Below, piece after piece: positions 5,214 to 63,690 of a stretch of DNA of 64,000 nucleotides. This DNA comes from a virus. Every line of letters begins with the position of its first letter. Within the stretch, counting starts at the first letter, position 1. The DNA is taken from UHGV virus genome UHGV-0293664. The stretch is one strand, 5' to 3'. A program made the translations under genes and the position numbers. Below the pieces are notes generated by a model. It saw only the letters and a program-made list of their open reading frames with translations. It was not told the origin of the DNA and did no database searches.

Positions 5214-5217
5214 CAGT

Positions 5218-5246
5218 AAAGCCCCGCTTCGGCGGGGTTTATTTTT
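5218..5246 (+). terminator. Rho-independent terminator
   Basis: CCCCGC-TTCG-GCGGGG hairpin followed by T-run. Confidence 0.8.
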
Positions 5247-5255
5247 ATGCTCAGA

Positions 5256-5284
5256 TTGACTATTGTTACAAAATTTGGTAAAAT
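5256..5284 (+). promoter_or_regulatory. sigma70-like promoter
   Basis: TTGACT, 17-nt spacer, TAAAAT. Confidence 0.55.
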
Positions 5285-5317
5285 ACCTTGTAGAGATTTT
5301 CATACCGGAGGAGTGAC

Positions 5318-6808
5318 GTGGCTAAGTATGGATTGACAGAGGCTGGTTTCGTTATACCAACCCTAAATGACCTAATCGTTGAAACTAAGCAAAGCCTGAT
5401 CCGTGCTTTTGGCGAAAACTTCAACGTACAGAGTAACTCCGTTGCAGATAAGCTGACCACTATCTTCAACGAGCGAGAGTATCAACTTATTCTTATGGCA
5501 GCATCTGTATACGCATCACAGACGCTGTATGGGGCAGAAGGTATTTACCTGGATGAGCTTCTTGGAAGACAAGGTATTTACCGAAGAGGCCGTTCTAAAT
5601 CATCAGGTACCTGCCAGTTGACAATCAACACAACTGTGCCGTACAATATGATTTACGATTCCAAAACTTACACACTGGACAGTGGGAACTTTGTTCTTAG
5701 CAATGACGTGCAGGTAGCGGGAAATCTTATTGCTCATAGGATAAACGCTCCAGATCTAAGAATTGGGAAATACAACTTTCAAATTACCAACCAGACAGAT
5801 GGAAGTATCAAAACAAAAAGTCTGGTTTTAACAGATAAGGCTCTGGACTCTTCTGATCTGCCAAGCTTTTACGGAGAGATTAAGCAGTTCATTGTCGATA
5901 ATACAACCCTGTTGAACGACGATTTGATTCAGATCGATATGTTGACAGGAACGTTGTGGATAGGGTACAATTCGAATCTTGATCAAGTTGGACTTAATAG
6001 TAGAGTAGATTTCAGGGTATCCCCGATTGTAGGGGAAAGAACTATTACCCTGGATGTTATCGCTAACGAGGCTGGTGAGCTGTCAAGAGAGGCAGAAACC
6101 GTGACAACAATGTCGCCTACTCCCAGCGGATTTATCAAACTCACCAACCGAGAAAGATTCAATGAGGGTAGGGATGTTGAGAAAGACTCAGAGTATCGCT
6201 TAAGAGCTTCCAGCACAAAACAGTTAACATCTAAGGCTACCCGTCCTGCAATCCTTAGCGCTGTAAGCGAGGTGAAAGGTGTTGAGAAAGTGAGAGTGTT
6301 CTCCAACAACACCGATAAAACTGATGCTAAAGGTATACCTCCTTACAAGTTCCAAGTGGTTGTGTTTGGTGGTGCAACGGAAGACATTTGCCAAGCACTT
6401 TACCAAACTATAGCCTGCACGAACAGGACTTATGGTAATATTTTCTACGATGTCACTACATCTGACGGTCAAACTGAAAGAATTTATTACTCCAAGGCAA
6501 ATACCTACCGCCTAGATGTAAGAATTACCTACTCCGGTGCTGCGCTTTCCACAACCGAAAAAGATGCCATTACAGAGGCCCTTTTGCATGTTGTTAACGG
6601 ACTAGATGTTGCAGATACGTTGTACAATATCCAATTGGTCGGTGCTGCATCTGCTGCTGTGTCGATAGGCAGATTTAATAGACTGGTAATTCAAGTTAAA
6701 CCAGTAGGAGCTTCTGATGAAGCTTACACTACAAACGATATTGTTGCGAACATGACCGAGGTGTTTGACCTCGACGAAAGTAATATAACTTTCCAACAAA
6801 CTATTTAA
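5318..6808 (+). CDS. Tail/baseplate structural protein
   Basis: 496 aa; GTG start with GGAGGAG RBS; located in tail module. Confidence 0.5.
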   Translation: MAKYGLTEAGFVIPTLNDLIVETKQSLIRAFGENFNVQSNSVADKLTTIFNEREYQLILMAASVYASQTLYGAEGIYLDELLGRQGIYRRGRSKSSGTCQLTINTTVPYNMIYDSKTYTLDSGNFVLSNDVQVAGNLIAHRINAPDLRIGKYNFQITNQTDGSIKTKSLVLTDKALDSSDLPSFYGEIKQFIVDNTTLLNDDLIQIDMLTGTLWIGYNSNLDQVGLNSRVDFRVSPIVGERTITLDVIANEAGELSREAETVTTMSPTPSGFIKLTNRERFNEGRDVEKDSEYRLRASSTKQLTSKATRPAILSAVSEVKGVEKVRVFSNNTDKTDAKGIPPYKFQVVVFGGATEDICQALYQTIACTNRTYGNIFYDVTTSDGQTERIYYSKANTYRLDVRITYSGAALSTTEKDAITEALLHVVNGLDVADTLYNIQLVGAASAAVSIGRFNRLVIQVKPVGASDEAYTTNDIVANMTEVFDLDESNITFQQTI

Positions 6809-6819
6809 GGCGGCGAGAT

Positions 6820-7506
6820 ATGGCAGAGATTAAGTCGGATGTTAACCACATCCACACTCTGCCAGATTTTGTTCAGGGAGGTCTTGACTACCTGCCTGGA
6901 GATTTTCTGGCTGAGAAGGTTAATTTAGTCACATTCTTAACCGTGTACCTTAAAAGGTTGGAGGATGTTGATAAGATGCTGGTAGGTTTGGCTGAAGGAA
7001 GATTGCTTAACAATGCCAGCGGAAGATACCTTGACGAGGTTGGTAATCAACTTGGTATTCTTAGGAATGGACTTTCAGATGCTGATTTTCGTGCCACACT
7101 AATTATTCAGCAGGCCGCAGCATCAAGGGGCGGGACTCGCGAAGATGTCATCTCCACCTTGCGACAATTGTTCGGAAGAGACAATTTCGATACGTGGAAA
7201 GGAGACAACTTCCGGTTTGACATAAATATTAGAAAAACTTGCTTTGACATATTGCAGTCTATCGATCAGATCTTAGATATGCTACCATTGCCTTGTCATT
7301 TGCGTCTTACAGAATCGCAAGGGCAAGCTTTTGGTTTTGAAGGGGACTCTACAGCTCTTGGCTTCGGATCAGTGTGGGAAGAAAACCAATTCGGAGTTGG
7401 TGGGCTGGCTACTTTGCTGTATGTTCCTGACGTAAGACCTGATTGGGACACCACAACCATTTATTGTGAAAGTATTACAGTAAACGCAACTAGACAGGAG
7501 GGTTAA
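6820..7506 (+). CDS. Tail/baseplate structural protein
   Basis: 228 aa; RBS present; stop/start coupled to next gene. Confidence 0.5.
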   Translation: MAEIKSDVNHIHTLPDFVQGGLDYLPGDFLAEKVNLVTFLTVYLKRLEDVDKMLVGLAEGRLLNNASGRYLDEVGNQLGILRNGLSDADFRATLIIQQAAASRGGTREDVISTLRQLFGRDNFDTWKGDNFRFDINIRKTCFDILQSIDQILDMLPLPCHLRLTESQGQAFGFEGDSTALGFGSVWEENQFGVGGLATLLYVPDVRPDWDTTTIYCESITVNATRQEG

Positions 7507-9578
7507 TGGCAACAGCTGTTTTTAAACCTTACCGTGATTACTCTACAATGGCTGCACAGTTTCATTACCGCACAGTTCAGGATACTGCCGTTCCTGGTAG
7601 GGATTATGATCATGTTGAGGGCGATGTAACTATCCCAGTCGGGGCAACCAGTATTGAGATTCCGGTGGAAATTGTTGACAAATTGCCCAACAGATTGCCA
7701 AGAAGCTTCTTTATGGAGTTTTCATCAAAATCTCAAGGGGTGATGATTGGGACACAAAGGGCGAAATGTACAATAGTTTCAGATGAGAATCTTGACAGGA
7801 TATCTTGGGATACTGTCGAGGAGAGAATGTTCCACCCAAGATATTGGGTTACAAATACTCAGCAGACTGAAAGTACCTGTATTGTTGCAGATAACAACTG
7901 TTGTATTAACCGTTTAGTGTCAAGAACATATGGAGGTGTGGCTGGGTGCATTTGGGAAACAGTTGACAAGTATGACCATTTCGGTATTGGGTTTGATGAT
8001 CACTATGAGATGAGAAACACCAAGCTTTGGTTCAGAATGTCAATAACCAACGCCAGCAACTTCTCCACTCCTGAAAAGATGATTATGACTGTAGACCTTG
8101 TTGATGGCACAATCATCTATGTTCCTTTAGCTCAATATGCTGTCAGCATCTCAGAGGATAAGAATGTTGCAGAAATTCATATTGATTTTGAGGACTGCGT
8201 CGGGATGGACCAGAACAACAACATGATGGGTGTTGATCCTCGGCAGGTGAGAAGGATTTTAATACCGCTCATGCCTAAAGACTGGGTAAGTAATAGCACA
8301 GACCCGAGAACGGAAAATGTAGAGTGTGAGTTGCGCCTAGATTTGCTTCAGCCAGACACAGGCTGGAAAATGATGCAACTTAACAATATTCAGGTGAGAG
8401 AGCACGACGTTGGGATCTGCACCGCATATGACGATATGTGGAACGTATCTCCTTTAAGGGTGTTGAACAATATCAAGCGTCTGGGCTATACCGGAACCAT
8501 AAACCATTATGTTGGTATGAGTCATTATTATGACTACACATGGTCAGGAACCCAATGGTCTATAAACAGAACAGGAGCGCTAAACGCTGCAGCTTATAAA
8601 TGGCATGATGATTTTATGTACAATGCCAAACGACATAACTTCGACGTTATGCAATCTGTAAGTTTTGAGCTTTTCAGCGATGCCTGCCCGTTGGAATGGA
8701 CCCAAAGAGACTGGAACGATAACTATGCTAAAACAGGCTATACGCCTTGTAGTTACCTCCTATCTCCAACCATTGAAGAGGGTATGAATTTCCTTACTGC
8801 AGTATTTAAGAATTTTGCATCAGCCGCTATGAGAAACAATCTGCCAGTGATTATGCAGATTGGTGAACCGTGGTGGTGGTTCAATACCGATACTCGTAAG
8901 CCTTGTATTTATGACTACCCTACAAAACAGGCGTTTTATGATGAGACTGGTGAATATGCACTAGACATTGGGACTATTGACGATCCTAAAACTGGCGGTG
9001 TTTATGACAAGTATGTAGCATTTTGTCGTGGTAAGCTTGGCGCTCGTATTGCGGCTATTTCAAAGGCAATAAAGGCACACGCTGCATCAGCTCAGATGAC
9101 AGCTCTGCTGTTTTTCCCAACCATTATGGAAACCGAGCTTACGCAAAAGCTGAACCTTGCTGACCAATATAAAAAAGAAGCAGGTGCTCTTGATTTCTTC
9201 TGCACTGAGTGCTACGATTGGGTGATGCAGGGAGGTATTGAAAAGGCAAAAGAGTCTGTAAACATACCTATCGTTAAGTTAGGTTGGCAACCGTCTGAAA
9301 TACAATACCTTGCAGGGTTCGTTCCTAGCAAAGAGCTTGCTCCGGTATATGGCTACGACCCAACCAGGAATTACCAAGAATTTTTATGGAGATGTATCTG
9401 CGGAAACATGGCAACCATAGAGTATAGATACCCTGAGGTAAAACAGTATGTGTGGGCATACCCGCAAGTAATGTCTGACAGCATCACTGTTACCGCTAGG
9501 GATTCTACCGTGCTTCATATAGGGCAGGTTGCTCTGAAAGGGTATGTAGAAGATGTTGTCCCGCCAGACTTCTCATAA
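7506..9578 (+). CDS. Tail/baseplate structural protein
   Basis: 690 aa; ATGA-type coupling with upstream gene. Confidence 0.5.
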   Translation: MATAVFKPYRDYSTMAAQFHYRTVQDTAVPGRDYDHVEGDVTIPVGATSIEIPVEIVDKLPNRLPRSFFMEFSSKSQGVMIGTQRAKCTIVSDENLDRISWDTVEERMFHPRYWVTNTQQTESTCIVADNNCCINRLVSRTYGGVAGCIWETVDKYDHFGIGFDDHYEMRNTKLWFRMSITNASNFSTPEKMIMTVDLVDGTIIYVPLAQYAVSISEDKNVAEIHIDFEDCVGMDQNNNMMGVDPRQVRRILIPLMPKDWVSNSTDPRTENVECELRLDLLQPDTGWKMMQLNNIQVREHDVGICTAYDDMWNVSPLRVLNNIKRLGYTGTINHYVGMSHYYDYTWSGTQWSINRTGALNAAAYKWHDDFMYNAKRHNFDVMQSVSFELFSDACPLEWTQRDWNDNYAKTGYTPCSYLLSPTIEEGMNFLTAVFKNFASAAMRNNLPVIMQIGEPWWWFNTDTRKPCIYDYPTKQAFYDETGEYALDIGTIDDPKTGGVYDKYVAFCRGKLGARIAAISKAIKAHAASAQMTALLFFPTIMETELTQKLNLADQYKKEAGALDFFCTECYDWVMQGGIEKAKESVNIPIVKLGWQPSEIQYLAGFVPSKELAPVYGYDPTRNYQEFLWRCICGNMATIEYRYPEVKQYVWAYPQVMSDSITVTARDSTVLHIGQVALKGYVEDVVPPDFS

Positions 9579-37041: not shown

Positions 37042-37379
37042 GTTTGTGGAGAAATATCGTTAACTACGTGTGTGGCAATCCAACCCCTGAAGAGAAGGAT
37101 GTTGTGATTCACGATTTTACTAAAAGATCTCGTGAAAAAGATCTACTGCTAACAAAGGTGACTGATAAAGATCCCGCAGTAGGGGACTGGGCAGGTTTTG
37201 CATTTACATCGGACAAATACACCTTTAACAAAGGTGACTACCTTGTTGTGGATTTTAACGAAGACATTGAGGGTGCTGAACCTTACTATCAGACCCTTAT
37301 TGTTGCAGGGTGTGTTGATCTCTCTGCAGGTATGCACAGTTTGATTCTTTTTGAGCTTGACTCTGAAGACCTTGAGTAG
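37038..37379 (+). CDS. Hypothetical protein
   Basis: 113 aa; ATGA-type overlap with helicase stop. Confidence 0.5.
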   Translation: MSLWRNIVNYVCGNPTPEEKDVVIHDFTKRSREKDLLLTKVTDKDPAVGDWAGFAFTSDKYTFNKGDYLVVDFNEDIEGAEPYYQTLIVAGCVDLSAGMHSLILFELDSEDLE

Positions 37380-37395
37380 TAAGATGTGAGTCTAA

Positions 37396-37413
37396 AGGGG
37401 AGGCACTCCTCCC
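37396..37413 (+). promoter_or_regulatory. Leader or attenuator hairpin
   Basis: GGGGAGG-CACT-CCTCCCC followed by ACAAAAA, no T-run. Confidence 0.35.
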
Positions 37414-37439
37414 CACAAAAACTAAGGAAGCACTAAACG

Positions 37440-37742
37440 ATGAAACGTTATAAACCATACACTTTTGAAATCGATTTCGAACTTGACGATATGTTTACTG
37501 TGGAGGCTCAGGCAGTTGTCCAGTTGCCAGACCCGGAGTGCCGTGATTCTGATGTTGACTATTACGGATTTAGACAAATTACCGATGTGCATGTTTACCA
37601 CAACGGTGAAGAGGTGGACTTCTACAAATTGCCAAACGATATGCGCCACTCAATTTACAAACGTGCAGCCCGTGAACTAGATTCCTATCTGGATGCAGCG
37701 ACGACAGCAGCTGCATTTGCCGAAGAAGTGGGAGGTTTCTGA
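37440..37742 (+). CDS. Small acidic protein
   Basis: 100 aa; Asp/Glu-rich. Confidence 0.5.
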   Translation: MKRYKPYTFEIDFELDDMFTVEAQAVVQLPDPECRDSDVDYYGFRQITDVHVYHNGEEVDFYKLPNDMRHSIYKRAARELDSYLDAATTAAAFAEEVGGF

Positions 37743-53191: not shown

Positions 53192-53354
53192 GTACTCGAT
53201 CTGTTTTTCGTTTCAAAGATTGAATTTTCTGAAAATTTTTCTCGATAAATTTCTCAGTACTCGATCTGTTTTTCGTTTTCTGAATCGGATTTTCTGGAAA
53301 TCGTTCCGGCTCTCGACCTGAAATTTTTGGGGACGAAATCGATTTTTCGTTTTC
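53192..53354. repeat. Iteron-like direct repeats, three copies
   Basis: Repeat unit TCGATYTKTTTTTCGTTTTC at 53192-53214, 53257-53280 and 53334-53354 in AT-rich non-coding DNA. Confidence 0.7.
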
Positions 53355-53481
53355 AGAAATGGATTTTTAAAATTTCTATATGGGAATATTTTATGGGATA
53401 CTGTTTTATAGGAAATTGTTACGGAGGGTAATTAGCGTGCTAATTAAATTTATGAAATGCGAGGAGTTCTCATTTAGAATT

Positions 53482-54356: not shown

Positions 54357-54755
54357 ATGAAAACCACAACCTTTAATTTTGACAATGCTAACTTCTCTTT
54401 TTCTGATGTTAAAAGCTGCCGCCGTGATCGCGGATTCTACAAGGCCTATAATCTGGTTGTCTTGGACGATGATAATAATTTGCACGAAGTAGCGGAGATC
54501 CGGTACTATGCCGCCGCCAGCGGTAACACTCACTACTGTGTATTTTGGATTCACGACAACAAGAACAATAAGTACGGTTATACTGGCGGCAAGGCGAGCG
54601 GTCACGGTTATGATAAAGCCAACGCTGCACTTGAAAGCGCATTAAGTGCCATGGGAATCACTGCCGACGGCTGGATCTATGAAGAAGAGTTTTTGGCGGC
54701 ACTTGCTAACCGCTTGGGCTATAAAAAGCACATTGTAACGTGCGCCCACGAATAA
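54357..54755 (+). CDS. Hypothetical protein
   Basis: 132 aa; AAGAGGA RBS. Confidence 0.55.
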   Translation: MKTTTFNFDNANFSFSDVKSCRRDRGFYKAYNLVVLDDDNNLHEVAEIRYYAAASGNTHYCVFWIHDNKNNKYGYTGGKASGHGYDKANAALESALSAMGITADGWIYEEEFLAALANRLGYKKHIVTCAHE

Positions 54756-54768
54756 AAAAAAAAAATTA

Positions 54769-54796
54769 TTGACACGCTGCAAAATTAAAGTAAACT
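54769..54796 (+). promoter_or_regulatory. sigma70-like promoter
   Basis: TTGACA, 16-nt spacer, TAAACT; followed by GGCGGGAATATTTCCCGCC leader palindrome. Confidence 0.5.
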
Positions 54797-54844
54797 AGAC
54801 ACAAAAGGCGGGAATATTTCCCGCCAACACAAAGGAAAAAGATC

Positions 54845-55249
54845 ATGAATAAGAACGTACGCCGCATCATGAACGAGTTGGCAAACGATGAAAAAATTAT
54901 TGACATGCATTTGATCAACATTTGCCGCCGTTGTGTAACATATAACAACCGCGCCGCAAAAGCGCGTGAGATGAACGCAAAAGGTACCTTAAAGCCATTC
55001 CAGGTGGTGGTAAAGGCCATTAAAGATGTAACTAATACGGCAAACCAGGTACAGGGGAACACCAACGAGAGTACCAATATTGATCCGTCTTACGTAATGA
55101 AACGGATCCGGACTTGCAAGAATAAAGAGCAGGTGTATAACGTCATAGATTGGCTGGACTCCCTGGGTGATGTGGTTTACAATAGGTTTTCTGCAGCTAT
55201 CGAGATCCAGCTTGACAGATTAGACGGGAAAGTACTAAAAACTTATTGA
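54845..55249 (+). CDS. Hypothetical protein
   Basis: 134 aa; AAGGAAAAAG RBS. Confidence 0.55.
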   Translation: MNKNVRRIMNELANDEKIIDMHLINICRRCVTYNNRAAKAREMNAKGTLKPFQVVVKAIKDVTNTANQVQGNTNESTNIDPSYVMKRIRTCKNKEQVYNVIDWLDSLGDVVYNRFSAAIEIQLDRLDGKVLKTY

Positions 55250-55252
55250 GTT

Positions 55253-55297
55253 TATTTTTAGATGGCCTTGACTTCAGGGCCATCAATAAAGTAAACT
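55253..55297 (+). promoter_or_regulatory. Promoter with -35 inside palindromic operator, copy 1
   Basis: GATGGCC-TTGACT-N-GGCCATC then TAAACT; near-identical copies at 55875 and 59620. Confidence 0.6.
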
Positions 55298-55329
55298 AAC
55301 CACAATTGAGCGGAAAAGGAGGCTTAAAG

Positions 55330-55449
55330 ATGAGCACTACACGCCAGCACACAAAGGTAACTATTATCGTTTGCATCATTGGTTACATCCTGGCGCAAAT
55401 GTTGATGAGTAGCGCCAACAGTTTTGCAAAATTTTTCTTAAATTTTTAA
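55330..55449 (+). CDS. Small hydrophobic peptide
   Basis: 39 aa ORF below track cutoff; AAAGGAGG RBS; one predicted transmembrane helix. Confidence 0.4.
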   Translation: MSTTRQHTKVTIIVCIIGYILAQMLMSSANSFAKFFLNF

Positions 55450-55478
55450 TTGACAAGCTAACCCAAATCGGTATACTT
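55450..55478 (+). promoter_or_regulatory. sigma70-like promoter
   Basis: TTGACA, 16-17-nt spacer, TATACT; followed by GGGAAAACTTCCC leader palindrome. Confidence 0.55.
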
Positions 55479-55528
55479 AAACACGTAAACGGGAAAACTT
55501 CCCAAAACACACAAAAGGAGAAAACACC

Positions 55529-55870
55529 ATGACTACTATGACCGCCGAAGAAAAAGCCCTGCAGATCGCCGCTCTGAAAAAACAGATCGCAGACCTTGAG
55601 AATAAGATCGATAACTTTGAAATCGACGAGGACAAGTACGACGAAAACTATGATGAATGGCTAGACGAGGTTTATGGCGAAATTATGATCGGAAACATTT
55701 CTTTTCTTCCGTCGCGTATCCTCAAGGAGTTAGATCCTATCGCTTACCGCTGCGGATTTAGCGACTACATCGACAGCCTGGATATTGAGGACGATGAAGA
55801 GTACCAAGAATTGCAGACAGAGATTGAAGAAGTGAAAGAAGAGCTTTCAAAGCTGGAAGAAAACGAGTAA
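55529..55870 (+). CDS. Strongly acidic coiled-coil protein, candidate DNA mimic
   Basis: 113 aa; runs of Asp/Glu (IDEDKYDENYDEWLDE, DIEDDEEYQELQTEIEE). Confidence 0.55.
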   Translation: MTTMTAEEKALQIAALKKQIADLENKIDNFEIDEDKYDENYDEWLDEVYGEIMIGNISFLPSRILKELDPIAYRCGFSDYIDSLDIEDDEEYQELQTEIEEVKEELSKLEENE

Positions 55871-55874
55871 AATT

Positions 55875-55919
55875 TATTTTTAGATGGCCTTGACTCCAGG
55901 GCCATCAATAAAGTAAACT
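55875..55919 (+). promoter_or_regulatory. Promoter with -35 inside palindromic operator, copy 2
   Basis: Near-identical to 55253-55297. Confidence 0.6.
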
Positions 55920-55960
55920 TTATACTGTTAACACTGAACTACTGCAAAGGAGTTAAAACC

Positions 55961-56206
55961 ATGGCAGCACTAATCACCAAGTATTATGCCCCTACTAACA
56001 CCAAAAGCGCCCGTATCATGGTAAAAGGCTTCGGACGTAAAAAGGTTTACACCTGGGATTATGCCTTAGATACGGAAGACAACTACACCAACGCGATGAC
56101 CGATTTTATTAATGAGCTGAACACGCGGATCTTGACAAATTATAAAATTACCGATATTGCCTATATAGGGGAAGGCGGGATCTGTTTTGTCGGTATCGTC
56201 AAATAA
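55961..56206 (+). CDS. Small hypothetical protein
   Basis: 81 aa; AAGGAG RBS. Confidence 0.5.
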   Translation: MAALITKYYAPTNTKSARIMVKGFGRKKVYTWDYALDTEDNYTNAMTDFINELNTRILTNYKITDIAYIGEGGICFVGIVK

Positions 56207-56281
56207 ACTATTTTTTCGGTGGTCCTGGCTGCAGGGCCATCTATAAAGATAATTTATTAACACCGTGAAAGGAGAAAGTAC

Positions 56282-56635
56282 ATGATCAGCGGGGCTAGTT
56301 TTATTATTGGCGCTATTGCTACGGCTTTAATTGTAAACAAGATCCAATCTAAAAACGAAAAAGATAGCAACGCGCTCACAGAATACCCATTTTGGGTATT
56401 CAACGACAACGAAGACTACATAATCAAGTACAAGAATGAGAAGGGCGACCAGGTAACACCGCGACCGATCCCGGCTTACAAAATGCAAGAAACACTATAC
56501 CGCCTAAAGGCTGGAGGCGCAAAAATCGTAGACTTTTGGGGATATGATTGCAAGGATCAGGAGGTTATAAAACGGCGTATCCGGGCGATTCAGGCAAATA
56601 TCGAGATCAGTAAGGGGGGAAGTTATGAAAATTAA
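56282..56635 (+). CDS. Small membrane-anchored protein
   Basis: 117 aa; N-terminal hydrophobic helix; AAAGGAGAAAG RBS. Confidence 0.5.
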   Translation: MISGASFIIGAIATALIVNKIQSKNEKDSNALTEYPFWVFNDNEDYIIKYKNEKGDQVTPRPIPAYKMQETLYRLKAGGAKIVDFWGYDCKDQEVIKRRIRAIQANIEISKGGSYEN

Positions 56636-56822
56636 TTTCGAAAAAATTGTAAAGCGCCCCCACGATTCCGAAGAGCTGCCGGAACGCCGCCAGCGCAACA
56701 ATAAACTGAATAAACCGAAAAGATTTGGGAAGATCTGGCGGAATCATTATGATCGTAAACTGCCTGGCCTACTCTTGGAACGTGAACGACAGGCGGAACG
56801 ATACCGCCACAAAGGCAAATAA
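56625..56822 (+). CDS. Small basic protein
   Basis: 65 aa; Arg/Lys-rich; overlaps upstream gene by 11 nt. Confidence 0.45.
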   Translation: MKINFEKIVKRPHDSEELPERRQRNNKLNKPKRFGKIWRNHYDRKLPGLLLERERQAERYRHKGK

Positions 56823-56828
56823 CAACCA

Positions 56829-56858
56829 ACGCCCCGCCATTGTGCGGGGCTTTTTATT
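56829..56858 (+). terminator. Rho-independent terminator
   Basis: CCCCGC...GCGGGG hairpin then TTTTTATTT. Confidence 0.75.
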
Positions 56859-57002
56859 TCTATCCTACGAATAGCGCCCCTGGTTGGTCCCACAAACGCC
56901 ACAAAAGCCCCTACCTATGCAATCCCCTTTCTTAGTCTGAAAACATCGCCCAGGGCCGTTTTATGGTGTTAAAAATAGCATTGACAGTGATTTTATTTAA
57001 AG

Positions 57003-57031
57003 CTTGACACCTTGGAATAGCCCAGATATAC
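57003..57031 (+). promoter_or_regulatory. sigma70-like promoter
   Basis: TTGACA, 17-nt spacer, TATACT. Confidence 0.6.
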
Positions 57032-57067
57032 TAACCACATCAAAGCAAGAAGGAAGGAGTAAACGCC

Positions 57068-57328
57068 ATGCGTAAATTAAAAAATTTTGATAAAGTCGAT
57101 ATTGTCCTGAATAATTTTTACTACTGCAATAATAAAGCCGTTTGGTGGCGTGATAGTTCCACCGATAAAGTTAAAGCGCGCTTTCTCCAGGGGCACTGGC
57201 AAGGCCGCCCAGTGATTAAGATCCTGGGGCAATCGGTAGCGTTTAAAAATTGCCGCCGTGTTGATGACGTTGAAGAGATTCTAAACATTTTACGCCACAA
57301 TAATTTAAAAAATAGTGTTGACAAGTAA
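57068..57328 (+). CDS. Small hypothetical protein
   Basis: 86 aa; AGGAAGGAG RBS. Confidence 0.5.
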   Translation: MRKLKNFDKVDIVLNNFYYCNNKAVWWRDSSTDKVKARFLQGHWQGRPVIKILGQSVAFKNCRRVDDVEEILNILRHNNLKNSVDK

Positions 57329-57346
57329 ATCTTGATAAGTATACTT
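57318..57346 (+). promoter_or_regulatory. sigma70-like promoter
   Basis: TTGACA, 17-nt spacer, ATACTT; followed by GGCGGGAAAACTTCCCGCC leader palindrome. Confidence 0.55.
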
Positions 57347-57402
57347 AAACACACAGGCGGGAAAACTTCCCGCCACTAACAAAGAAAATAGGAGAAAATA
57401 TC

Positions 57403-58026
57403 ATGACCACCGTTAACATTACCGCAGGTTACAATTTATCTTTCGACGTGCTGACCGACGAACAAAAAGAAAAAGCTATTGAAATGGTCCGCGAAAGAGA
57501 AGAACACAGCGGAGAGGATTTTTTCGCAGAAAGTGTAATTGAATATTATAAAGAACAAGTTTTTCCAGAGTACGGCCTTGAAGATACCGAAGTACATTGG
57601 TCCGGATTTTGGTGTCAAGGCGATGGCGCGTCAATTAGTGCTGAAAATGTAGACTTAGAAAAATTCTTGCGTAAAGTAAAGGCCCTGACCAAGTTCCGAT
57701 CAATTCGTCACTTGTTCGGCACAATGCACGATGGCGAGTTATCAGCCAGTATTGAACGCGACAAGTACAGCCATTACAGCCATGAAAACACTGTAAACGG
57801 ATACATTGATACCACCTGGATAAATCTGACCGCCAAACAAGAAAACAAAGTGGAAGACCTGGAAGAGCTGATCACCGAGACGGCACGGGAGCTATCCCGT
57901 AAGGTTTACGTAGACCTGGAGGAGGCCTATCTAGAACAGTTCACTACCGAAAACCTGATCGATCTTATTAAGGCTAATGATTGGCGGTTTGATGTAGATG
58001 AACATGGCGAGATGACTTTTTCATAA
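57403..58026 (+). CDS. Acidic protein, candidate anti-restriction or DNA-mimic protein
   Basis: 207 aa; Asp/Glu-rich throughout; no confident family assignment. Confidence 0.55.
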   Translation: MTTVNITAGYNLSFDVLTDEQKEKAIEMVREREEHSGEDFFAESVIEYYKEQVFPEYGLEDTEVHWSGFWCQGDGASISAENVDLEKFLRKVKALTKFRSIRHLFGTMHDGELSASIERDKYSHYSHENTVNGYIDTTWINLTAKQENKVEDLEELITETARELSRKVYVDLEEAYLEQFTTENLIDLIKANDWRFDVDEHGEMTFS

Positions 58027-58034
58027 ATAAAGTG

Positions 58035-58062
58035 TTGCAATAACCTAAAAACCTGCTATATT
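58035..58062 (+). promoter_or_regulatory. sigma70-like promoter
   Basis: TTGCAA, 16-nt spacer, TATATT; followed by GGGGCAAGACGTTTGCCCC hairpin. Confidence 0.45.
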
Positions 58063-58115
58063 AAAACTCAAGGGGCAAGACGTTTGCCCCCACACAAAAC
58101 AAAGAGGAAAACATC

Positions 58116-58496
58116 ATGAAAAACACTACTAAAGCTATTGACACCGTTATGTTTAACCTGGTTACCTTTCGCGAGGATATGAAAGATCTTCCGCGTGAAA
58201 CAGTGTGCGACCATATCGAAAACTATCGCAAACTAATCAAAAAGTTGCCTTTAAAACGTGATCAGTATGCGGCTAACGCCATGCTTAATGCCATGATCAA
58301 AAAGATGATCCAGTGTGATTTAACTCTGGCCTATGATTATGCAGGTGGTCGTTTTGCAGTATACAATCAGCCCGTGCCTGGTATGAGCACCACAGAAGAA
58401 TTGCACGCGTTAAATCTAAAACAAGACGTGTGGGATAGCATGCCTCGCGTGGTGGTATGGGTAGAAAGCGGGAAGATTTACGGCGATAATTTTTAA
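58116..58496 (+). CDS. Hypothetical protein
   Basis: 126 aa; AAGAGGAAAAC RBS. Confidence 0.55.
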   Translation: MKNTTKAIDTVMFNLVTFREDMKDLPRETVCDHIENYRKLIKKLPLKRDQYAANAMLNAMIKKMIQCDLTLAYDYAGGRFAVYNQPVPGMSTTEELHALNLKQDVWDSMPRVVVWVESGKIYGDNF

Positions 58497-59279: not shown

Positions 59280-59315
59280 ACGGCCCCCCGATCATGGGGG
59301 CCTATCTTTAAAAAA
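59280..59315 (+). terminator. Rho-independent terminator
   Basis: GGCCCCC...GGGGGCC hairpin, then A-run and T-run. Confidence 0.65.
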
Positions 59316-59332: not shown

Positions 59333-59361
59333 TTGCAATCCGGTCCGGAATGTGGATAATA
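59333..59361 (+). promoter_or_regulatory. sigma70-like promoter
   Basis: TTGCAA, 17-nt spacer, ATAATA; TGTGGATAA overlaps the -10. Confidence 0.45.
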
Positions 59362-59415
59362 ACAATCAACGGGGAGCTAATCCCACCACCACAAAAACCA
59401 GAAAGGAGAAACAAA

Positions 59416-59616
59416 ATGAGCAACAATATCCGCGTTATTAACTTCAAAAAAGAAGAAAAAATTGCCGTGCTGATTGACGGTCAAGAAATCTTCAAGGGCG
59501 ACTATGAAGATCATCAAACGGCGATTAGTATCACCCGCGTGATTGGTTACCATAATTTCTACCCCCAAGGTGCTGAGGCAGCAGTTAAACGAATCAAAGA
59601 GATTGTAGGCCTGTAA
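59416..59616 (+). CDS. Small hypothetical protein
   Basis: 66 aa from ATG 59416 with AAAGGAGA RBS. Confidence 0.5.
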   Translation: MSNNIRVINFKKEEKIAVLIDGQEIFKGDYEDHQTAISITRVIGYHNFYPQGAEAAVKRIKEIVGL

Positions 59617-59619
59617 AAT

Positions 59620-59666
59620 TTATTTTTAGATGGCCTTGACTCCGGGGGCCATCAATAAAGTAAATT
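59620..59666 (+). promoter_or_regulatory. Promoter with -35 inside palindromic operator, copy 3
   Basis: GATGGCC-TTGACT-N-GGCCATC then TAAATT. Confidence 0.55.
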
Positions 59667-60376: not shown

Positions 60377-60411
60377 GGCCCCAGGCAGGGCCTGCAGCGA
60401 TATAATCACAT

Positions 60412-60445
60412 AAAGGCTATGCGGTTGCATGGCCTTTATTATTTT
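60412..60445 (+). terminator. Rho-independent terminator
   Basis: AAAGGCTATGC...GCATGGCCTTT stem then ATTATTTT. Confidence 0.6.
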
Positions 60446-60493: not shown

Positions 60494-60522
60494 TTGCATC
60501 AAGCCCTACAATATGGATAATA
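60494..60522 (+). promoter_or_regulatory. sigma70-like promoter
   Basis: TTGCAT, 17-nt spacer, ATAATA. Confidence 0.45.
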
Positions 60523-60577
60523 GGACGTGTCGGGGGGCGGCCCCCAATCATTAACCGGATAGATAGGAGTTAAAACC

Positions 60578-60862
60578 ATGGCTATTGTTACCGCTGGCGA
60601 TGTAGTAGAAATGGAAGCAAAATACTTAAAAGCGGGTATGCATATCCTACGCAACGATCTTGAACTGGTCCTGACAATGGTTGACTATAACCCAGGGCAA
60701 GATTATCCAAGTGTTGACTACTTTTTTAGGTATGTTGATGAAGAATTAAAAGAGGATGAGGCTTATCAGGGCGAATTCTGTAATTTCTTTTGCTCTGATG
60801 AGGTTGTAAAAGTTATCTATCAACCTGGCGTACCTTTCCCGTTGCACGCTATCAATAAATAA
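60578..60862 (+). CDS. Small acidic protein
   Basis: 94 aa; TAGGAG RBS. Confidence 0.5.
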   Translation: MAIVTAGDVVEMEAKYLKAGMHILRNDLELVLTMVDYNPGQDYPSVDYFFRYVDEELKEDEAYQGEFCNFFCSDEVVKVIYQPGVPFPLHAINK

Positions 60863-60917
60863 ACCTGGCGGGGCCGAAAAGGCCCCCAATTATGAAAATA
60901 AAGAGAGGTAAATCATC

Positions 60918-61151
60918 ATGATGGAACAAATTAAACGCGCTGAGGCTATTAATGGCAATGTGATCTACTTTGTCAGCAAAAACGAAAAAGGCGTACCATA
61001 TGCGGCGGTAATAGTACAGCCTGACGGTGATTATTGGTTTACTGTGTACGGCGCTTATTCTTTCGGGCGTCCGGTGCATGATAGAATTTTGAAAGTAGCG
61101 AACCCCACCGGGAAGAATATCACGGCAGAAAAATTTTTTGAAAATAATTGA
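60918..61151 (+). CDS. Small hypothetical protein
   Basis: 77 aa; AGAGAGG RBS. Confidence 0.5.
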   Translation: MMEQIKRAEAINGNVIYFVSKNEKGVPYAAVIVQPDGDYWFTVYGAYSFGRPVHDRILKVANPTGKNITAEKFFENN

Positions 61152-61176
61152 CAACGTTTTAAATTAGTTTAAGATG
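61148..61176 (+). promoter_or_regulatory. sigma70-like promoter
   Basis: TTGACA then TAAGAT; shares TAAGATGTATCACGTAGGG with promoter at 61997. Confidence 0.5.
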
Positions 61177-61232
61177 TATCACGTAGGGGAGACAAGCGCC
61201 CTATTAAACGCAACAGGAAGAGGATAAACACC

Positions 61233-61472
61233 ATGAAAAGCAATAAAGGTTATAACGGTTACAAAAACAAAACTCATTGGAATGTAAGCCTTTGGATTAA
61301 TAACGATGAGTCATTGTACCGGTTGGCCCAAGGCTTTATCAACGCTAATGCTAATCGTAATGATGCGGCGCGGGATATGATGCTTTTTCTGGAGCTAACC
61401 GGACAAGATAAGACCCCGGACGGCTTCAAGTACAGCACTACGGCGATCCGTGCCGCGATGGTTGGAATGTGA
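61233..61472 (+). CDS. Small hypothetical protein
   Basis: 79 aa; GGAAGAGGA RBS. Confidence 0.5.
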   Translation: MKSNKGYNGYKNKTHWNVSLWINNDESLYRLAQGFINANANRNDAARDMMLFLELTGQDKTPDGFKYSTTAIRAAMVGM

Positions 61473-61481
61473 TAAAATAGC

Positions 61482-61509
61482 TTGACACTGTTTTTTATTC
61501 TGGTATAGT
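61482..61509 (+). promoter_or_regulatory. sigma70-like promoter
   Basis: TTGACA, 16-nt spacer, TATAGT. Confidence 0.55.
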
Positions 61510-61651
61510 TTATCACATAGGACGGCACGACAGAGTACTACGGATTCGAGGGTGTCCGGTGCGGTGAACTTGCTCGCGACCTTAAGGAAGATCCAGACCT
61601 GGAAGATCTGCCCATCACCGTAAACGGGAAAACTTACGTAAACCGTTAACC

Positions 61652-61798: not shown

Positions 61799-61990
61799 AT
61801 GAATATCGAACAAGTTAGAAAGGTATTGGCGGTACTGCGTTATCATAATCATAGAAAGGTCATAGACGATCCTGATTATGTCGATTCAAGCCTGGAAGGG
61901 GATACACTACAAGCCATAAGCAACATGCAAGAATTGCTAAAGCGCATGACAGAGAAAAACAGATCTGATTATATAGGTGACGAGATCTAA
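61799..61990 (+). CDS. Small hypothetical protein
   Basis: 63 aa; weak RBS. Confidence 0.4.
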   Translation: MNIEQVRKVLAVLRYHNHRKVIDDPDYVDSSLEGDTLQAISNMQELLKRMTEKNRSDYIGDEI

Positions 61991-61996
61991 AATAGC

Positions 61997-62024
61997 TTGC
62001 ACAATGTATCTGATAGTGTAAGAT
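61997..62024 (+). promoter_or_regulatory. sigma70-like promoter
   Basis: TTGCAC then TAAGAT; paralogous to promoter at 61148. Confidence 0.45.
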
Positions 62025-62074
62025 GTATCACGTAGGGCGGCAATAGTGCCGCTCACAACTGGAAGGAAAACACC

Positions 62075-62278
62075 ATGACTACAGCTAACCGCCTGATCGC
62101 CGTCCTGAACAAAGCAAAGGCTAACCGCCTGGATGTTCAAATCAAAGAGCAAGCAAATGGCGAGATCCTTGCTACGGTGTCCGATGGCGGTTATGTATCG
62201 GAATCATTTTTATCAGGGAGCTTAGATCATCTTGTTTGGAAATTAGAAATTATCGTGGAGGATATGCAGATCATCTAA
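62075..62278 (+). CDS. Small hypothetical protein
   Basis: 67 aa; GGAAGGA RBS. Confidence 0.5.
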   Translation: MTTANRLIAVLNKAKANRLDVQIKEQANGEILATVSDGGYVSESFLSGSLDHLVWKLEIIVEDMQII

Positions 62279-62283
62279 TCTTT

Positions 62284-62399: not shown

Positions 62400-62428
62400 T
62401 TGACATCTGCCAGGGGGTGGGGTAACAT
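62400..62428 (+). promoter_or_regulatory. sigma70-like promoter
   Basis: TTGACA, 17-nt spacer, TAACAT. Confidence 0.5.
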
Positions 62429-62482
62429 TTATCTTGAAGGGGCAAAAGTGCCCACACAACAACCAGAAGAGAGGAAAACATT

Positions 62483-62755
62483 ATGTCAAGCTGGATTAAT
62501 CAAGAAGTCGAATCACGTTTTAATGCTATTTGGGATCTCATCGAAAAAGAGGACGGAACATCAAGCCCCTACCTCAACAATTTGGAATTCCATTTTGTGG
62601 AAGCGATGAACGCAGAACATGATCACGAAGGTGGTGCGGATGAATTCGCTAAAGGATATGGCTTCAACAATGCCAACGAAATGATCGAGGCGGTTGTACT
62701 CCAGGCTGAGGAAGATTATCAATTAAAAACGCTTGAATTCTGCCGCCGTAAGTAA
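62483..62755 (+). CDS. Small acidic protein
   Basis: 90 aa; AGAGAGGAAAAC RBS. Confidence 0.5.
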   Translation: MSSWINQEVESRFNAIWDLIEKEDGTSSPYLNNLEFHFVEAMNAEHDHEGGADEFAKGYGFNNANEMIEAVVLQAEEDYQLKTLEFCRRK

Positions 62756-62817
62756 TAAGATAATGACACGGGCCAAAAGGCCCACTAAACAAAAACCACA
62801 TAAAGAGGAAAAACATC

Positions 62818-63081
62818 ATGAAACGCCTTGATCAGCTCAAATTAGTTCAATATATGGCTTATCGTGTTCTTGAAGTCCAGAAAGGTAGCAAAAAAGAGGT
62901 TTGCGAGAAAGCTTATAAGATCTTCACTCGCAAAAAAGATGACTGGATGCTACGCCAGACCAAAAAGGCTGACATCTTGGGGTACCTGGAAGAAGAGATC
63001 CGACTTGAAGAGCAAGAAGAGATCCGCCGTAGTGAGGCAGATTATCAGGCCGCTTGGGAAAACTGGATGAGCAACAAATAA
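62818..63081 (+). CDS. Small hypothetical protein
   Basis: 87 aa; AAGAGGAAAAAC RBS. Confidence 0.5.
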   Translation: MKRLDQLKLVQYMAYRVLEVQKGSKKEVCEKAYKIFTRKKDDWMLRQTKKADILGYLEEEIRLEEQEEIRRSEADYQAAWENWMSNK

Positions 63082-63100
63082 TACAACAAGGTGCACGGTC

Positions 63101-63117
63101 AGGGGCTTAAAGCCCCT
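63101..63117 (+). terminator. Hairpin, possible weak terminator
   Basis: AGGGGCT-TAA-AGCCCCT; no clear T-run; same core as 63663 hairpin. Confidence 0.35.
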
Positions 63118-63146
63118 TGATCACATAAAAATTATGCTATCCCTGG

Positions 63147-63175
63147 TTGACAGGGATCGGCAGTTTTGCTATATT
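63147..63175 (+). promoter_or_regulatory. sigma70-like promoter
   Basis: TTGACA, 17-nt spacer, TATATT. Confidence 0.6.
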
Positions 63176-63224
63176 CTTTTTTGAAGGGAAGTTGTAAGAA
63201 AATTAACTAAGAGGTAAAAACACC

Positions 63225-63644
63225 ATGAACATTAAATCTAATAATCCGGCATATAGCTTTGATAACGCTTTTTGTCACGGTCCGGCGGCGAAAGGATTCG
63301 AAATCGATGGTAAACTAATTATTGTCAATGTTGACGGGGAAGAGGTTGCAGTATATCCGGTGGCAGACGTAAAAAGCCGTTTACAATGCCGCATGGATGT
63401 TACCGCCTATCAGCTTGATCCGGTCCGCATAGTTGCCCTGGTCCTGGAGGAAGAAATTAAAGCCATGCACCATAGCAACAGGTTTATTGGTGACGCTCAG
63501 GATAATATGAAGGTGTGCCGCCATAAAGTTAATGAAGTGCTTAAAGAGTACGGCTATAAGGATTTAATGATCAAGCGTGATGAAAAATTCCGCTACCGTA
63601 ACGACCTGGCAAATCGGATTTTTGAAATATACGAATCATTATAA
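63225..63644 (+). CDS. Hypothetical protein
   Basis: 139 aa; AAGAGGTAAAAAC RBS. Confidence 0.55.
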   Translation: MNIKSNNPAYSFDNAFCHGPAAKGFEIDGKLIIVNVDGEEVAVYPVADVKSRLQCRMDVTAYQLDPVRIVALVLEEEIKAMHHSNRFIGDAQDNMKVCRHKVNEVLKEYGYKDLMIKRDEKFRYRNDLANRIFEIYESL

Positions 63645-63662
63645 TTTCTTAACTGAATTATC

Positions 63663-63690
63663 AAGGGGCTTAAAGGCCCCTTTCTTTTTG
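63663..63690 (+). terminator. Rho-independent terminator
   Basis: AAGGGGC-TTAAAG-GCCCCTT hairpin then TTTCTTTTT. Confidence 0.7.

Follow-up and report, generated by a model that had tools for sequence, protein, structure and literature searches.

What are the short palindromes that stand between promoter and start codon in the leaders of many small phage genes, and would they act as DNA or as RNA? We addressed this question for a 64,000-nucleotide (nt) stretch of the virus genome UHGV-0293664 (the window, analysed at its full length), beginning with three leaders between positions 54769 and 57405. Between 54.0 and 58.5 kb the window shares 93-94% identity with over 100 rV5-like coliphages, the top match being vB_EcoM_Gotham (Vequintavirus, 94%), and by sequence identity it belongs to an rV5-like phage, a Vequintavirus. 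The + strand of 54-64 kb carries a row of small hypothetical genes; gene and promoter scans placed neither genes nor strong promoters on the minus strand of this region. In database records and in the rV5 genome paper, the region is annotated with predicted sigma-70 promoters and terminators only; the paper counts 33 promoters and 20 terminators and makes no mention of leader hairpins. As set out below, the leaders appear to be repeated cassettes of the promoter-early stem-loop (PeSL) type. The function that we favour, with moderate confidence, is the stabilisation and insulation of early mRNAs by a 5'-terminal RNA stem-loop, the repeated cassette also driving gene shuffling.

Three leaders carry a GGGAA-N3-TTCCC palindrome. 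These are GGCGGGAATATTTCCCGCC at 54807-54825, which a sequence-only reading of this DNA had recognised but placed at 54801; GGGAAAACTTCCC at 55491-55503, where that reading had put it; and GGCGGGAAAACTTCCCGCC at 57356-57374, a slight correction of 'about 57359'. The exact motif GGGAANNNTTCCC (GGGAA-N3-TTCCC) occurs three times in the window against 0.07 expected, and none of 100 shuffles reached three. The promoter proposed upstream of the palindrome is present in all three cases as a sigma-70-like pair of boxes with 10-11 of 12 consensus bases: TTGACA-16-TAAACT at 54769-54796, and TTGACA-16-TATACT at both 55450-55477 and 57318-57345. The distance from the -10 box to the start of the 54807, 55491 and 57356 hairpins is 10, 13 and 10 nt, respectively. 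Downstream of each palindrome are an A/C-rich spacer, a Shine-Dalgarno (SD) sequence and an ATG (54845, 55529 and 57403), the SD and ATG lying 19-28 nt away. The suggested 'AAAACACC-ATG' initiation region is also real, as AAACAYCATG is found six times against 0.52 expected; all six copies are at + strand gene starts between 55.5 and 63.2 kb.

The arrangement is commoner than the sequence-only reading had listed, and the three palindromes are a subset of it. We listed the 110 nt upstream of every called gene and ran a generic scan of the window for a -10 box followed, after 5-15 nt, by a stem of at least 5 bp without a T-run and, after 12-45 nt, by an SD and an open reading frame (ORF). Together these gave at least 11 leaders of the shared layout, which we call class-1 cassettes; ten of them, along with four cassettes of a second type (class 2), lie within 54.7-62.9 kb. 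Between 36 and 64 kb, 24 of 50 gene-upstream regions contain a GC hairpin without a T-run, compared with 8.4 ± 2.4 in dinucleotide shuffles (maximum 16 in 300). A stricter promoter-anchored test found a hairpin 8-13 nt past the -10 box at 5 of 52 sites with at least 10 of 12 consensus bases (background 3.2%, binomial P = 0.025), one of the five (38588) belonging to a true terminator. A similar site had been noted at 37396-37442, and its layout does match, but its stem is a different one, GGGGAGG-CACT-CCTCCCC. The idea of a single genome-wide control signal or operator is not supported for this genome, because GGGAA-N3-TTCCC is limited to three leaders and the 37397 hairpin and at least seven others have unrelated stems (GGGGAGG/CCTCCCC, GGGGCAA/TTGCCCC, GGGCC/GGCCC and GCGGCA/TGCCGC among them).

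The position of the hairpin is far more constant than its sequence. Among 97 cassettes from 14 loci, with 49 distinct hairpin sequences, the hairpin starts 8-13 nt past the -10 box in 93, most often at 10-11 nt. Purines make up 87% of the 5' arm and 13% of the 3' arm, and the spacer that follows is 54% A, 18% C, 17% G and 11% T, against a local T content of 26%; on the sense strand the segment ahead of the hairpin is 43% A. Stems are 5-8 bp long with folding energies of -5.5 to -16 kcal/mol (-9 to -16 kcal/mol for the strong cases). Predicted folds give the hairpin as both the minimum free energy (MFE) and the centroid structure of every leader, with SD and ATG left unpaired in most. RN[A/U]UU motifs number 0.60 per 100 nt in the leaders and 2.47 in the coding sequence next to them. 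Leaders of class 1 measure 48-57 nt and hairpin-less ones 29-36 nt in five of nine cases (41-52 nt in the other four), as if a hairpin of ~20 nt had been added at the 5' end.

Comparison with relatives indicates that it is the pairing that has been retained. The same cassettes are present at the loci compared, those of Gotham, rV5, MiataMamis, NHEP1, WM and two IMG/VR contigs, and in orthologous leaders the hairpin keeps its position while stem sequence and loop length change. The hairpin of the 134-amino-acid (aa) gene thus occurs as GGCGGGAA-TAT-TTCCCGCC, GGCGGTTGA-TAC-TCAGCCGCC and GGCGGGA-AACA-TCCCGCC, and that of the 94-aa gene as GGGGG-GCGG-CCCCC or, in MiataMamis and the IMG/VR contig L003, as GGAGGT-GAT-GCCTCC. 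The 126-aa gene has three distinct stems over Vequintavirus, phi92-like phages and BF17; the WM orthologue reads GGCGGGCGAG-ACG-TTTGCCCGCC and the phi92-like one GGCGGGAAA-TGG-TTTCCCGCC. Since stem sequence and loop change at a kept position, and the layout recurs elsewhere, pairing rather than one operator sequence seems to be under selection. RNAalifold found only one or two compensatory pairs per family in the orthologue sets, because MAFFT misplaces stems of unequal length, and in an ungapped alignment of 24 CGGGAA-family sequences the stems are mostly invariant.

The layout also extends to other phage lineages. It dominates in the Justusliebigvirus phages KKE7M, ESCO8, Eryne and UAB_1, and likewise in the jumbo phage BF17, where a 17-kb stretch has 17 cassettes, and in the Avunavirus Av-05. 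The four phi92-like loci (L129-L132, each of 12-15 kb) share a 21-mer, GGCGGGAAATGGTTTCCCGCC, in 4-6 copies per locus and always 10-11 nt past the -10 box. There are six copies each in L129 and L131 (in L131 at 3374, 6076, 6956, 9633, 11278 and 12136), and copies are 97-98% identical in these two loci and 83-85% in L130 and L132, where one copy has an inserted G. The 20-nt blocks on either side are each 30-45% identical. One copy occurs in the Vequintavirus NHEP1 (locus L127, 8951), and a scan of IMG/VR with a phi92-type 20-mer returned two phi92-like contigs only. An IMG/VR scan with GGCGGGAANNNTTCCCGCC gave 115 stretches, nearly all in unrelated contigs, and was uninformative. A CGGGAA..TTCCCG core recurs in Vequintavirus, Justusliebigvirus and Asteriusvirus.

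Is this element of a known kind? PeSLs were described in the T4-type phages RB49/phi1, and later in PST/T4 and nt-1/KVP40, as motifs of ~60-100 bp consisting of an AT-rich region, a near-perfect sigma-70 promoter, a stem-loop with a G-run, loop and C-run, an SD and an ATG (Arbiol 2010, PMC2839356; Comeau 2014, PMC4122927). They stand before ORFans, in hyperplastic regions and at indel boundaries, may form minicircles, and fall into five subclasses by the position of the stem-loop, one of which is 'downstream of the -10' (PMC2839356, PMC4122927). Judged by the features that sequence can test, the class-1 cassettes are of this type. Their promoters read TTGACA-16/17-TATACT/TAAACT/TAACAT with 10-11 of 12 consensus bases, TTGCAA and TTGCAT occurring as weaker variants. 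In 11 cassettes the A+T content of the 25 nt upstream of the -35 box is 73%, against a background of 56%, with visible A-run and T-run blocks. The stems are GC stems in the position of the 'downstream of the -10' subclass, an SD and a start codon form the 3' end of the motif, and clustered copies precede ORFans in a hyperplastic region and mark indel or replacement boundaries between close relatives. Proteins encoded downstream of the cassettes matched no Pfam family and only PHROGs of 'unknown function', and we class them as ORFans.

The differences from the published PeSLs concern scope and position. The known examples come from T4-type myoviruses (Straboviridae), whereas those described here are in Vequintavirinae, with relatives in Stephanstirmvirinae and Asteriusvirus; this is a difference of scope, not of element structure. 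RB49 PeSL leaders are likewise A/C-rich and U-poor. Most RB49 hairpins, however, belong to the promoter itself, where they lie between the boxes or enclose the -10 box in their loop, and only about two follow the -10 box, so that a position which is a minority subclass in RB49 is the majority here and would put the hairpin inside its own predicted transcript. We saw no sequence similarity between RB49 PeSLs and the window cassettes. None of the seven papers that mention PeSLs deals with rV5-like or phi92-like phages, and searches of the literature with the hairpin sequences showed them to be absent from the relevant papers. An Rfam scan of the whole window gave no match at the gathering threshold. 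A 96-nt cassette had no match in 5,426 complete Escherichia coli genomes and is therefore not host-derived. We take the cassettes to be a PeSL-type element, known in kind and now found in a new phage group.

As in the T4-type phages, the cassettes coincide with breaks in homology. Cassettes form the repeat families D1, D3, D4 and D9. Homology with the relatives breaks at the TTGACA at 56981-56986 and again at 61153, the last base of the -35 box of the 61148 cassette. At the 62733 cassette, promoter and hairpin are replaced in Gotham, rV5 and the locus L002, and homology returns inside the leader at ACCACATAAAGAGGA. Two indels are the size of a cassette, 61978-62282 and 63089-63656. The first, comprising a cassette and its ORF, is absent from Gotham, rV5, MiataMamis and L003. 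Around the second, the hairpin A(A)GGGGCTTAAAG(G)CCCCTT occurs at 63098-63117 and 63661-63683, flanking a promoter and a 139-aa ORF; Gotham and WM have no such ORF cassette and a single copy of the hairpin.

A separate observation concerns the 56981 break. Here two -35 boxes in tandem (TTGACA at 56981 and 57004) precede a single -10 box (window 56981-57032), and in MiataMamis and L003 the boxes matching 56981 and 57004 are separated by 543 bp with three small ORFs. The window arrangement looks like a deletion by recombination between promoters.

What would such a hairpin do? The sequence-only reading had offered a 5' stabilising RNA hairpin as one of its two options, and this is the reading that fits best, given a stem 8-13 nt past the -10 box, its presence in both MFE and centroid structures and the pairing kept in orthologues. 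In the mechanism that we favour, host RNA polymerase would read the near-consensus sigma-70 promoter, ahead of which is an AT-rich stretch, and the transcript would have the hairpin close to its start, its 5' arm purine-rich and its 3' arm pyrimidine-rich, followed by an unstructured U-poor, A/C-rich spacer, a strong SD, an A-rich AAAACAYC and the ATG. Because transcription is expected to start ~7 nt past the -10 box, the hairpin would begin 1-6 nt from the mRNA 5' end. A stem-loop in this place would deny RppH and RNase E a single-stranded 5' end, and its folding would prevent base-pairing between the GC-rich segment and the ribosome site. Few RNase E sites would be available in the U-poor leader, which would also leave the ribosome site open. 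On read-through transcripts from an upstream gene the same hairpin might serve as a barrier to 3' exonucleases. As ~60-90 nt of cassette recur many times, the cassettes could also act as homology patches for the insertion, deletion and swapping of small ORFans between phages.

There is precedent for this in the host. The 5'-terminal stem-loops of ompA and papA stabilise their mRNAs in E. coli by shielding the 5' end from RppH and RNase E (Emory, Bouvet, Arnold, Bricker, Belasco, cited in PMC3997798). Like them, the cassettes would have a stable hairpin a few nt from the 5' end as predicted and, in predicted folds, have an accessible ribosome site. The window leaders differ in having 48-57 nt and one hairpin; the ompA leader has 133 nt and two hairpins. 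A rationale for 5' protection could come from Srd, which in T4 stimulates RNase E on host mRNA, phage mRNA being stabilised (PMC4980113). The rV5 genome paper reports a probable Srd homologue, and such an activity, if true, would give 5' protection a purpose. An Srd-like gene was not located or confirmed in the window, Pfam and PHROGs searches with a candidate for the 'Srd-like' gp11 of rV5 being uninformative.

Several points weigh against a 5'-protective role. No mapped transcription starts or transcriptomes for rV5-like or phi92-like phages were found in the searched literature, and the 5'-terminal placement is taken from the usual distance between -10 box and start. Four tests, including a symmetric mismatch tally, gave no clear indication of the strand that carries the structure, and in two of them the A/C-rich flanks introduce a bias. 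Internal G.T mismatches outnumber A.C mismatches by 11 to 4 (P = 0.12) and 9 to 5 (P = 0.42), sense folding is favoured over antisense by 0.75 kcal/mol (Wilcoxon P = 0.025, sign test P = 0.10), and the comparison of stem lengths stands at 25 to 22. Some copies are weak or decayed (55491, with a z score of -0.7; 59372; 61183), and the 63147 promoter no longer has the 3' arm of its hairpin, so the hairpin is dispensable for some genes. Inactivation of RppH affects only ~10% of E. coli mRNAs. The phi92-like 21-mer, 97-98% identical in six paralogous copies between flanks of 30-45% identity, would not be predicted if any hairpin would do. In RB49, hairpins inside the promoter cannot belong to their own transcript, and a function common to both groups would not be 5' protection. 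Finally, the PeSL authors reported that one stem-loop cut lacZ expression as much as the rrnB T1 terminator.

The last two observations favour instead a read-through attenuator or terminator. Polymerase coming from promoters further upstream would be halted or attenuated at the hairpin, each small gene would depend mainly on its own promoter, and early transcription would be kept from running into the genes beyond. This is the function originally proposed in the PeSL papers, on the strength of that one reporter assay, and RB49 hairpins inside promoters could act on read-through RNA only; in the window, a promoter-less intergenic hairpin of like style is present at 60870-60886. The cassette hairpins do resemble an intrinsic terminator in being short, GC-rich and intergenic. 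However, they have no U-tract, as 73 of 83 distinct promoter-proximal hairpins are followed by two T or fewer in the next 8 nt, the tail being A/C-rich instead. They are also anchored to the -10 box (8-13 nt) and not to the upstream stop codon. Genuine terminators of the same region carry T-runs, and two of these, at 59282-59302 and 60410-60439, are 31 and 55 nt upstream of the hairpin-bearing cassettes at 59333 and 60494, which would make a second terminator redundant. An efficient terminator past the cassette's own predicted start would also abort the transcript of the cassette's own gene, and on all these grounds we favour a protective and insulating 5' stem-loop and consider attenuation unlikely.

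A sequence-specific site is also conceivable, in which the GGCGGGAA-loop-TTCCCGCC family, as a DNA operator centred near +13 or as an RNA hairpin, would let a factor of phage or host turn some of the early genes off or on. The near-identity of the phi92-like 21-mer in two of four loci despite diverged flanks, the CGGGAA..TTCCCG core common to three phage groups and the NGG of many BF17 loops all speak for it. A perfect palindrome of 19 bp with its centre near +13 of a strong promoter also recalls a lacO-type operator, whose position we take the hairpin position to resemble. But only 3 of at least 11 window hairpins belong to the family, and orthologues swap the whole stem while keeping the pairing. 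Half-sites stand 3 to 5 nt apart, and the loops differ without restriction (TAT, TGT, AAC, CAA, ACA, TAG, CAC and ATGGT). A dimeric DNA-binding protein would not tolerate this variation, which undermines the operator idea of the sequence-only reading; variable gaps and loops fit a hairpin, and not an operator of fixed geometry or an RNA-binding protein that reads the loop. A dimeric-repressor operator was rejected on these grounds and on the unrelated stems among cassettes. Gene conversion between repeated cassettes could account for the 21-mer, and we identified no candidate regulator. We regard it as improbable that GGCGGGAA-loop-TTCCCGCC is a sequence-specific cis element which a conserved phage or host factor recognises in rV5-like, phi92-like and PBECO4/BF17-like coliphages alike, the best hint of this being the phi92-like 21-mer. 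One possibility for such a factor is an RNA-binding protein by which early mRNAs of the phage would be marked as 'self', which, if true, could matter while an Srd-like protein stimulates host mRNA decay.

The cassettes could, alternatively, be recombination elements alone, with palindromes and promoters kept for cassette exchange, as homology patches or as DNA prone to form hairpins or cruciforms, and having no role in expression. Breakpoints at -35 boxes, leaders and flanking hairpins, the cassette-sized indels and the hairpin of the NHEP1 94-aa gene, which looks like a chimera of two variants, are what this would predict. It would not predict that hairpins of 49 distinct sequences in four lineages keep so tight a distance from the -10 box, or that pairing is kept through sequence turnover. 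Unrelated stems give no homology, yet occupy the same place, and promoters and leaders alone would serve equally well; recombination as the sole function is quite improbable. Least credible, to the point of deserving almost no weight, is that the hairpins are antisense terminators, read on the minus strand as a hairpin plus T-rich sequence that stops antisense polymerase: a scan flags minus-strand 57374-57356, 54825-54807 and 58091-58071, and the segment before the hairpin is rich in A, but a usable minus-strand T-run exists at a minority of hairpins, 54-64 kb is without minus-strand genes or strong promoters, and the fixed distance from the -10 box would go unexplained.

Other known systems were set aside. 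The lambda nut site resembles the cassettes as a small hairpin in an early leader near the promoter. It differs in having a conserved GNRA-like pentaloop and in occurring once per operon, whereas here loops are variable, 3-5 nt long, and found before nearly every small gene; no N-like protein was identified, and no boxA (CGCTCTT or GCTCTTTA) lies beside any leader. N4-type DNA-hairpin promoters were set aside because sigma-70 promoters are present, and rV5-like phages are not known to encode a virion RNA polymerase. CsrA sites were rejected as the loops have no GGA. Mimicry of clustered regularly interspaced short palindromic repeats (CRISPR) was dropped because the stem polarity appears to be unlike that of the E. 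coli type I-E repeat.

If these cassettes are correctly assigned, the PeSL concept of portable promoter-stem-loop-leader units that express and shuffle ORFans extends beyond T4-type phages to at least three other groups of large coliphages, Vequintavirinae, Stephanstirmvirinae and Asteriusvirus, pointing to a shared or convergent way of expressing early genes in E. coli. A hairpin inside its own transcript, unlike that of RB49, reopens the role of the stem-loop as one of 5' protection and insulation versus attenuation, and a 90-bp reporter makes that role testable. The cassettes could be ready parts for strong, context-insulated expression, and in therapeutic rV5-like phages their positions should help to annotate both transcription units and the breakpoints of recombination.

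The individual class-1 cassettes, all on the + strand, are as follows. The cassette of the 134-aa ORF (54769-54847) has its -35 box TTGACA at 54769-54774, its -10 box TAAACT at 54791-54796, the hairpin GGCGGGAA-TAT-TTCCCGCC at 54807-54825 (MFE and centroid structure, -14.6 kcal/mol, z -3.9), SD AAGGA at 54832-54836 and ATG at 54845. That of the 113-aa ORF (55450-55531) has TTGACA at 55450-55455, TATACT at 55472-55477, the weak hairpin GGGAA-AAC-TTCCC at 55491-55503 (about -5.5 kcal/mol), SD GGAG at 55517-55520 and ATG at 55529. It is 74% identical across 66 nt (family D3) to the cassette of the 207-aa ORF (57318-57405), which has TTGACA at 57318-57323, TATACT at 57340-57345, GGCGGGAA-AAC-TTCCCGCC at 57356-57374 (-14.6 kcal/mol, z -2.9), SD AGGAG at 57390-57394 and ATG at 57403. 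The 126-aa ORF (58035-58118) follows TTGCAA-16-TATATT and GGGGCAA-GACGT-TTGCCCC (58072-58090, -12.1 kcal/mol), with ATG at 58116. The cassette of the 66-aa ORF (59333-59418; TTGCAA-16-GATAAT, ATG at 59416) has a decayed hairpin with a 4-bp stem at 59372-59384, the counterpart of which in relatives is a full stem, GGGGA-GCTAA-TCCCC in rV5 and GGGGAG-ACA-CTCCCC in WM.

Further downstream, the cassette of the 94-aa ORF (60494-60580) combines TTGCAT-16-GATAAT with GGGGG-GCGG-CCCCC at 60532-60545 and ATG at 60578. That of the 79-aa ORF (61148-61235; TTGACA-16-TAAGAT, ATG at 61233) has a weak hairpin in which 61183-61188 pairs with 61199-61204 (-7.2 kcal/mol, z -0.1). The 67-aa ORF (61997-62077) has TTGCAC-16-TAAGAT, GGGCGGCA-ATAG-TGCCGCTC at 62035-62054 (-15 kcal/mol) and ATG at 62075; the 90-aa ORF (62400-62485) has TTGACA-17-TAACAT, GGGCA-AAAG-TGCCC at 62440-62453 and ATG at 62483; and the 87-aa ORF (62733-62820) has TTGAAT-17-TAAGAT, GGGCC-AAAA-GGCCC at 62770-62783 and ATG at 62818. 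Outside the main cluster, the 100-aa ORF (37357-37442) is preceded by TTGACT-17-TAAGAT and the GGGGAGG-CACT-CCTCCCC hairpin at 37397-37414 (-15.8 kcal/mol, z -3.4), with ATG at 37440. The intergenic hairpin before the 77-aa ORF (60870-60886, + strand), GGGGCC-GAAAA-GGCCCC, comes directly after a stop codon and has neither a T-run nor a recognisable sigma-70 promoter; the phi92-like orthologue of this gene has a TTGACA promoter and GGCGGGAAATGGTTTCCCGC instead.

The second cassette type is present in four copies of ~60 nt at 55238-55297, 55860-55919, 56195-56254 and 59606-59665, which alternate with the hairpin leaders and form family D1. In order, it consists of a stop codon, TTTATTTTTA, the palindrome GATGGCC-TTGACTYCRG-GGGCCATC, AATAAAGTAAACT, a leader and an ATG. 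The -35 box TTGACT is in the hairpin loop, which matches the PeSL subclass 'stem-loop overlapping the -35', and copies are 63-88% identical to the reference copy. As the T-run is upstream of the hairpin, this cassette is not a canonical terminator on either strand.

A few further observations were made in and around these cassettes. Upstream of the 60870 hairpin is CAATAAATAAACC, which is similar to the motif AATAAAGTAAAC of the second cassette type and resembles the T4 late-promoter consensus TATAAATA. An A12 tract at 54754-54765 begins at the upstream gene's stop codon and ends shortly ahead of the 54769 -35 box; Gotham has A10 here and rV5 A5, and the run may be a variable UP-element-like tract. 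At 61482-61650 a strong promoter, TTGACA-16-TATAGT, is followed by ~140 nt without an ORF, and CGTAAACGGGAAAACTTACGTAAAC at 61619-61643 is an 88% copy of the hairpin segment 55484-55508; the homologous rV5 DNA is within ORF171. This stretch is probably a recombination scar or a truncated gene, and may be a small RNA. No tRNA or transfer-messenger RNA (tmRNA) genes were found in the window. Three direct repeats of ~50 nt (GTACTCGATCTGTTTTTCGTTT...), spaced 65 and 74 nt apart, occupy 53192-53380 in the ORF-poor 52.9-53.8 kb, where the rV5 genome map has a 'non-coding' box; they may be iterons or a regulatory array.

Two observations concern the database records. In BF17 (MW822008) a small-gene block of ~8 kb is duplicated at 1.7-9.4 kb and 364.6-372.3 kb (1757-9388 of locus L134 and 21167-28798 of L139), which is either a long direct repeat or an artefact of assembly or terminal redundancy. 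About 20 'Campylobacter phage' records (MG065635, MG065656-MG065682; host C. jejuni) are 92-93% identical to the window, and some match phi92-like phages instead; the C. jejuni host label of these records looks doubtful.

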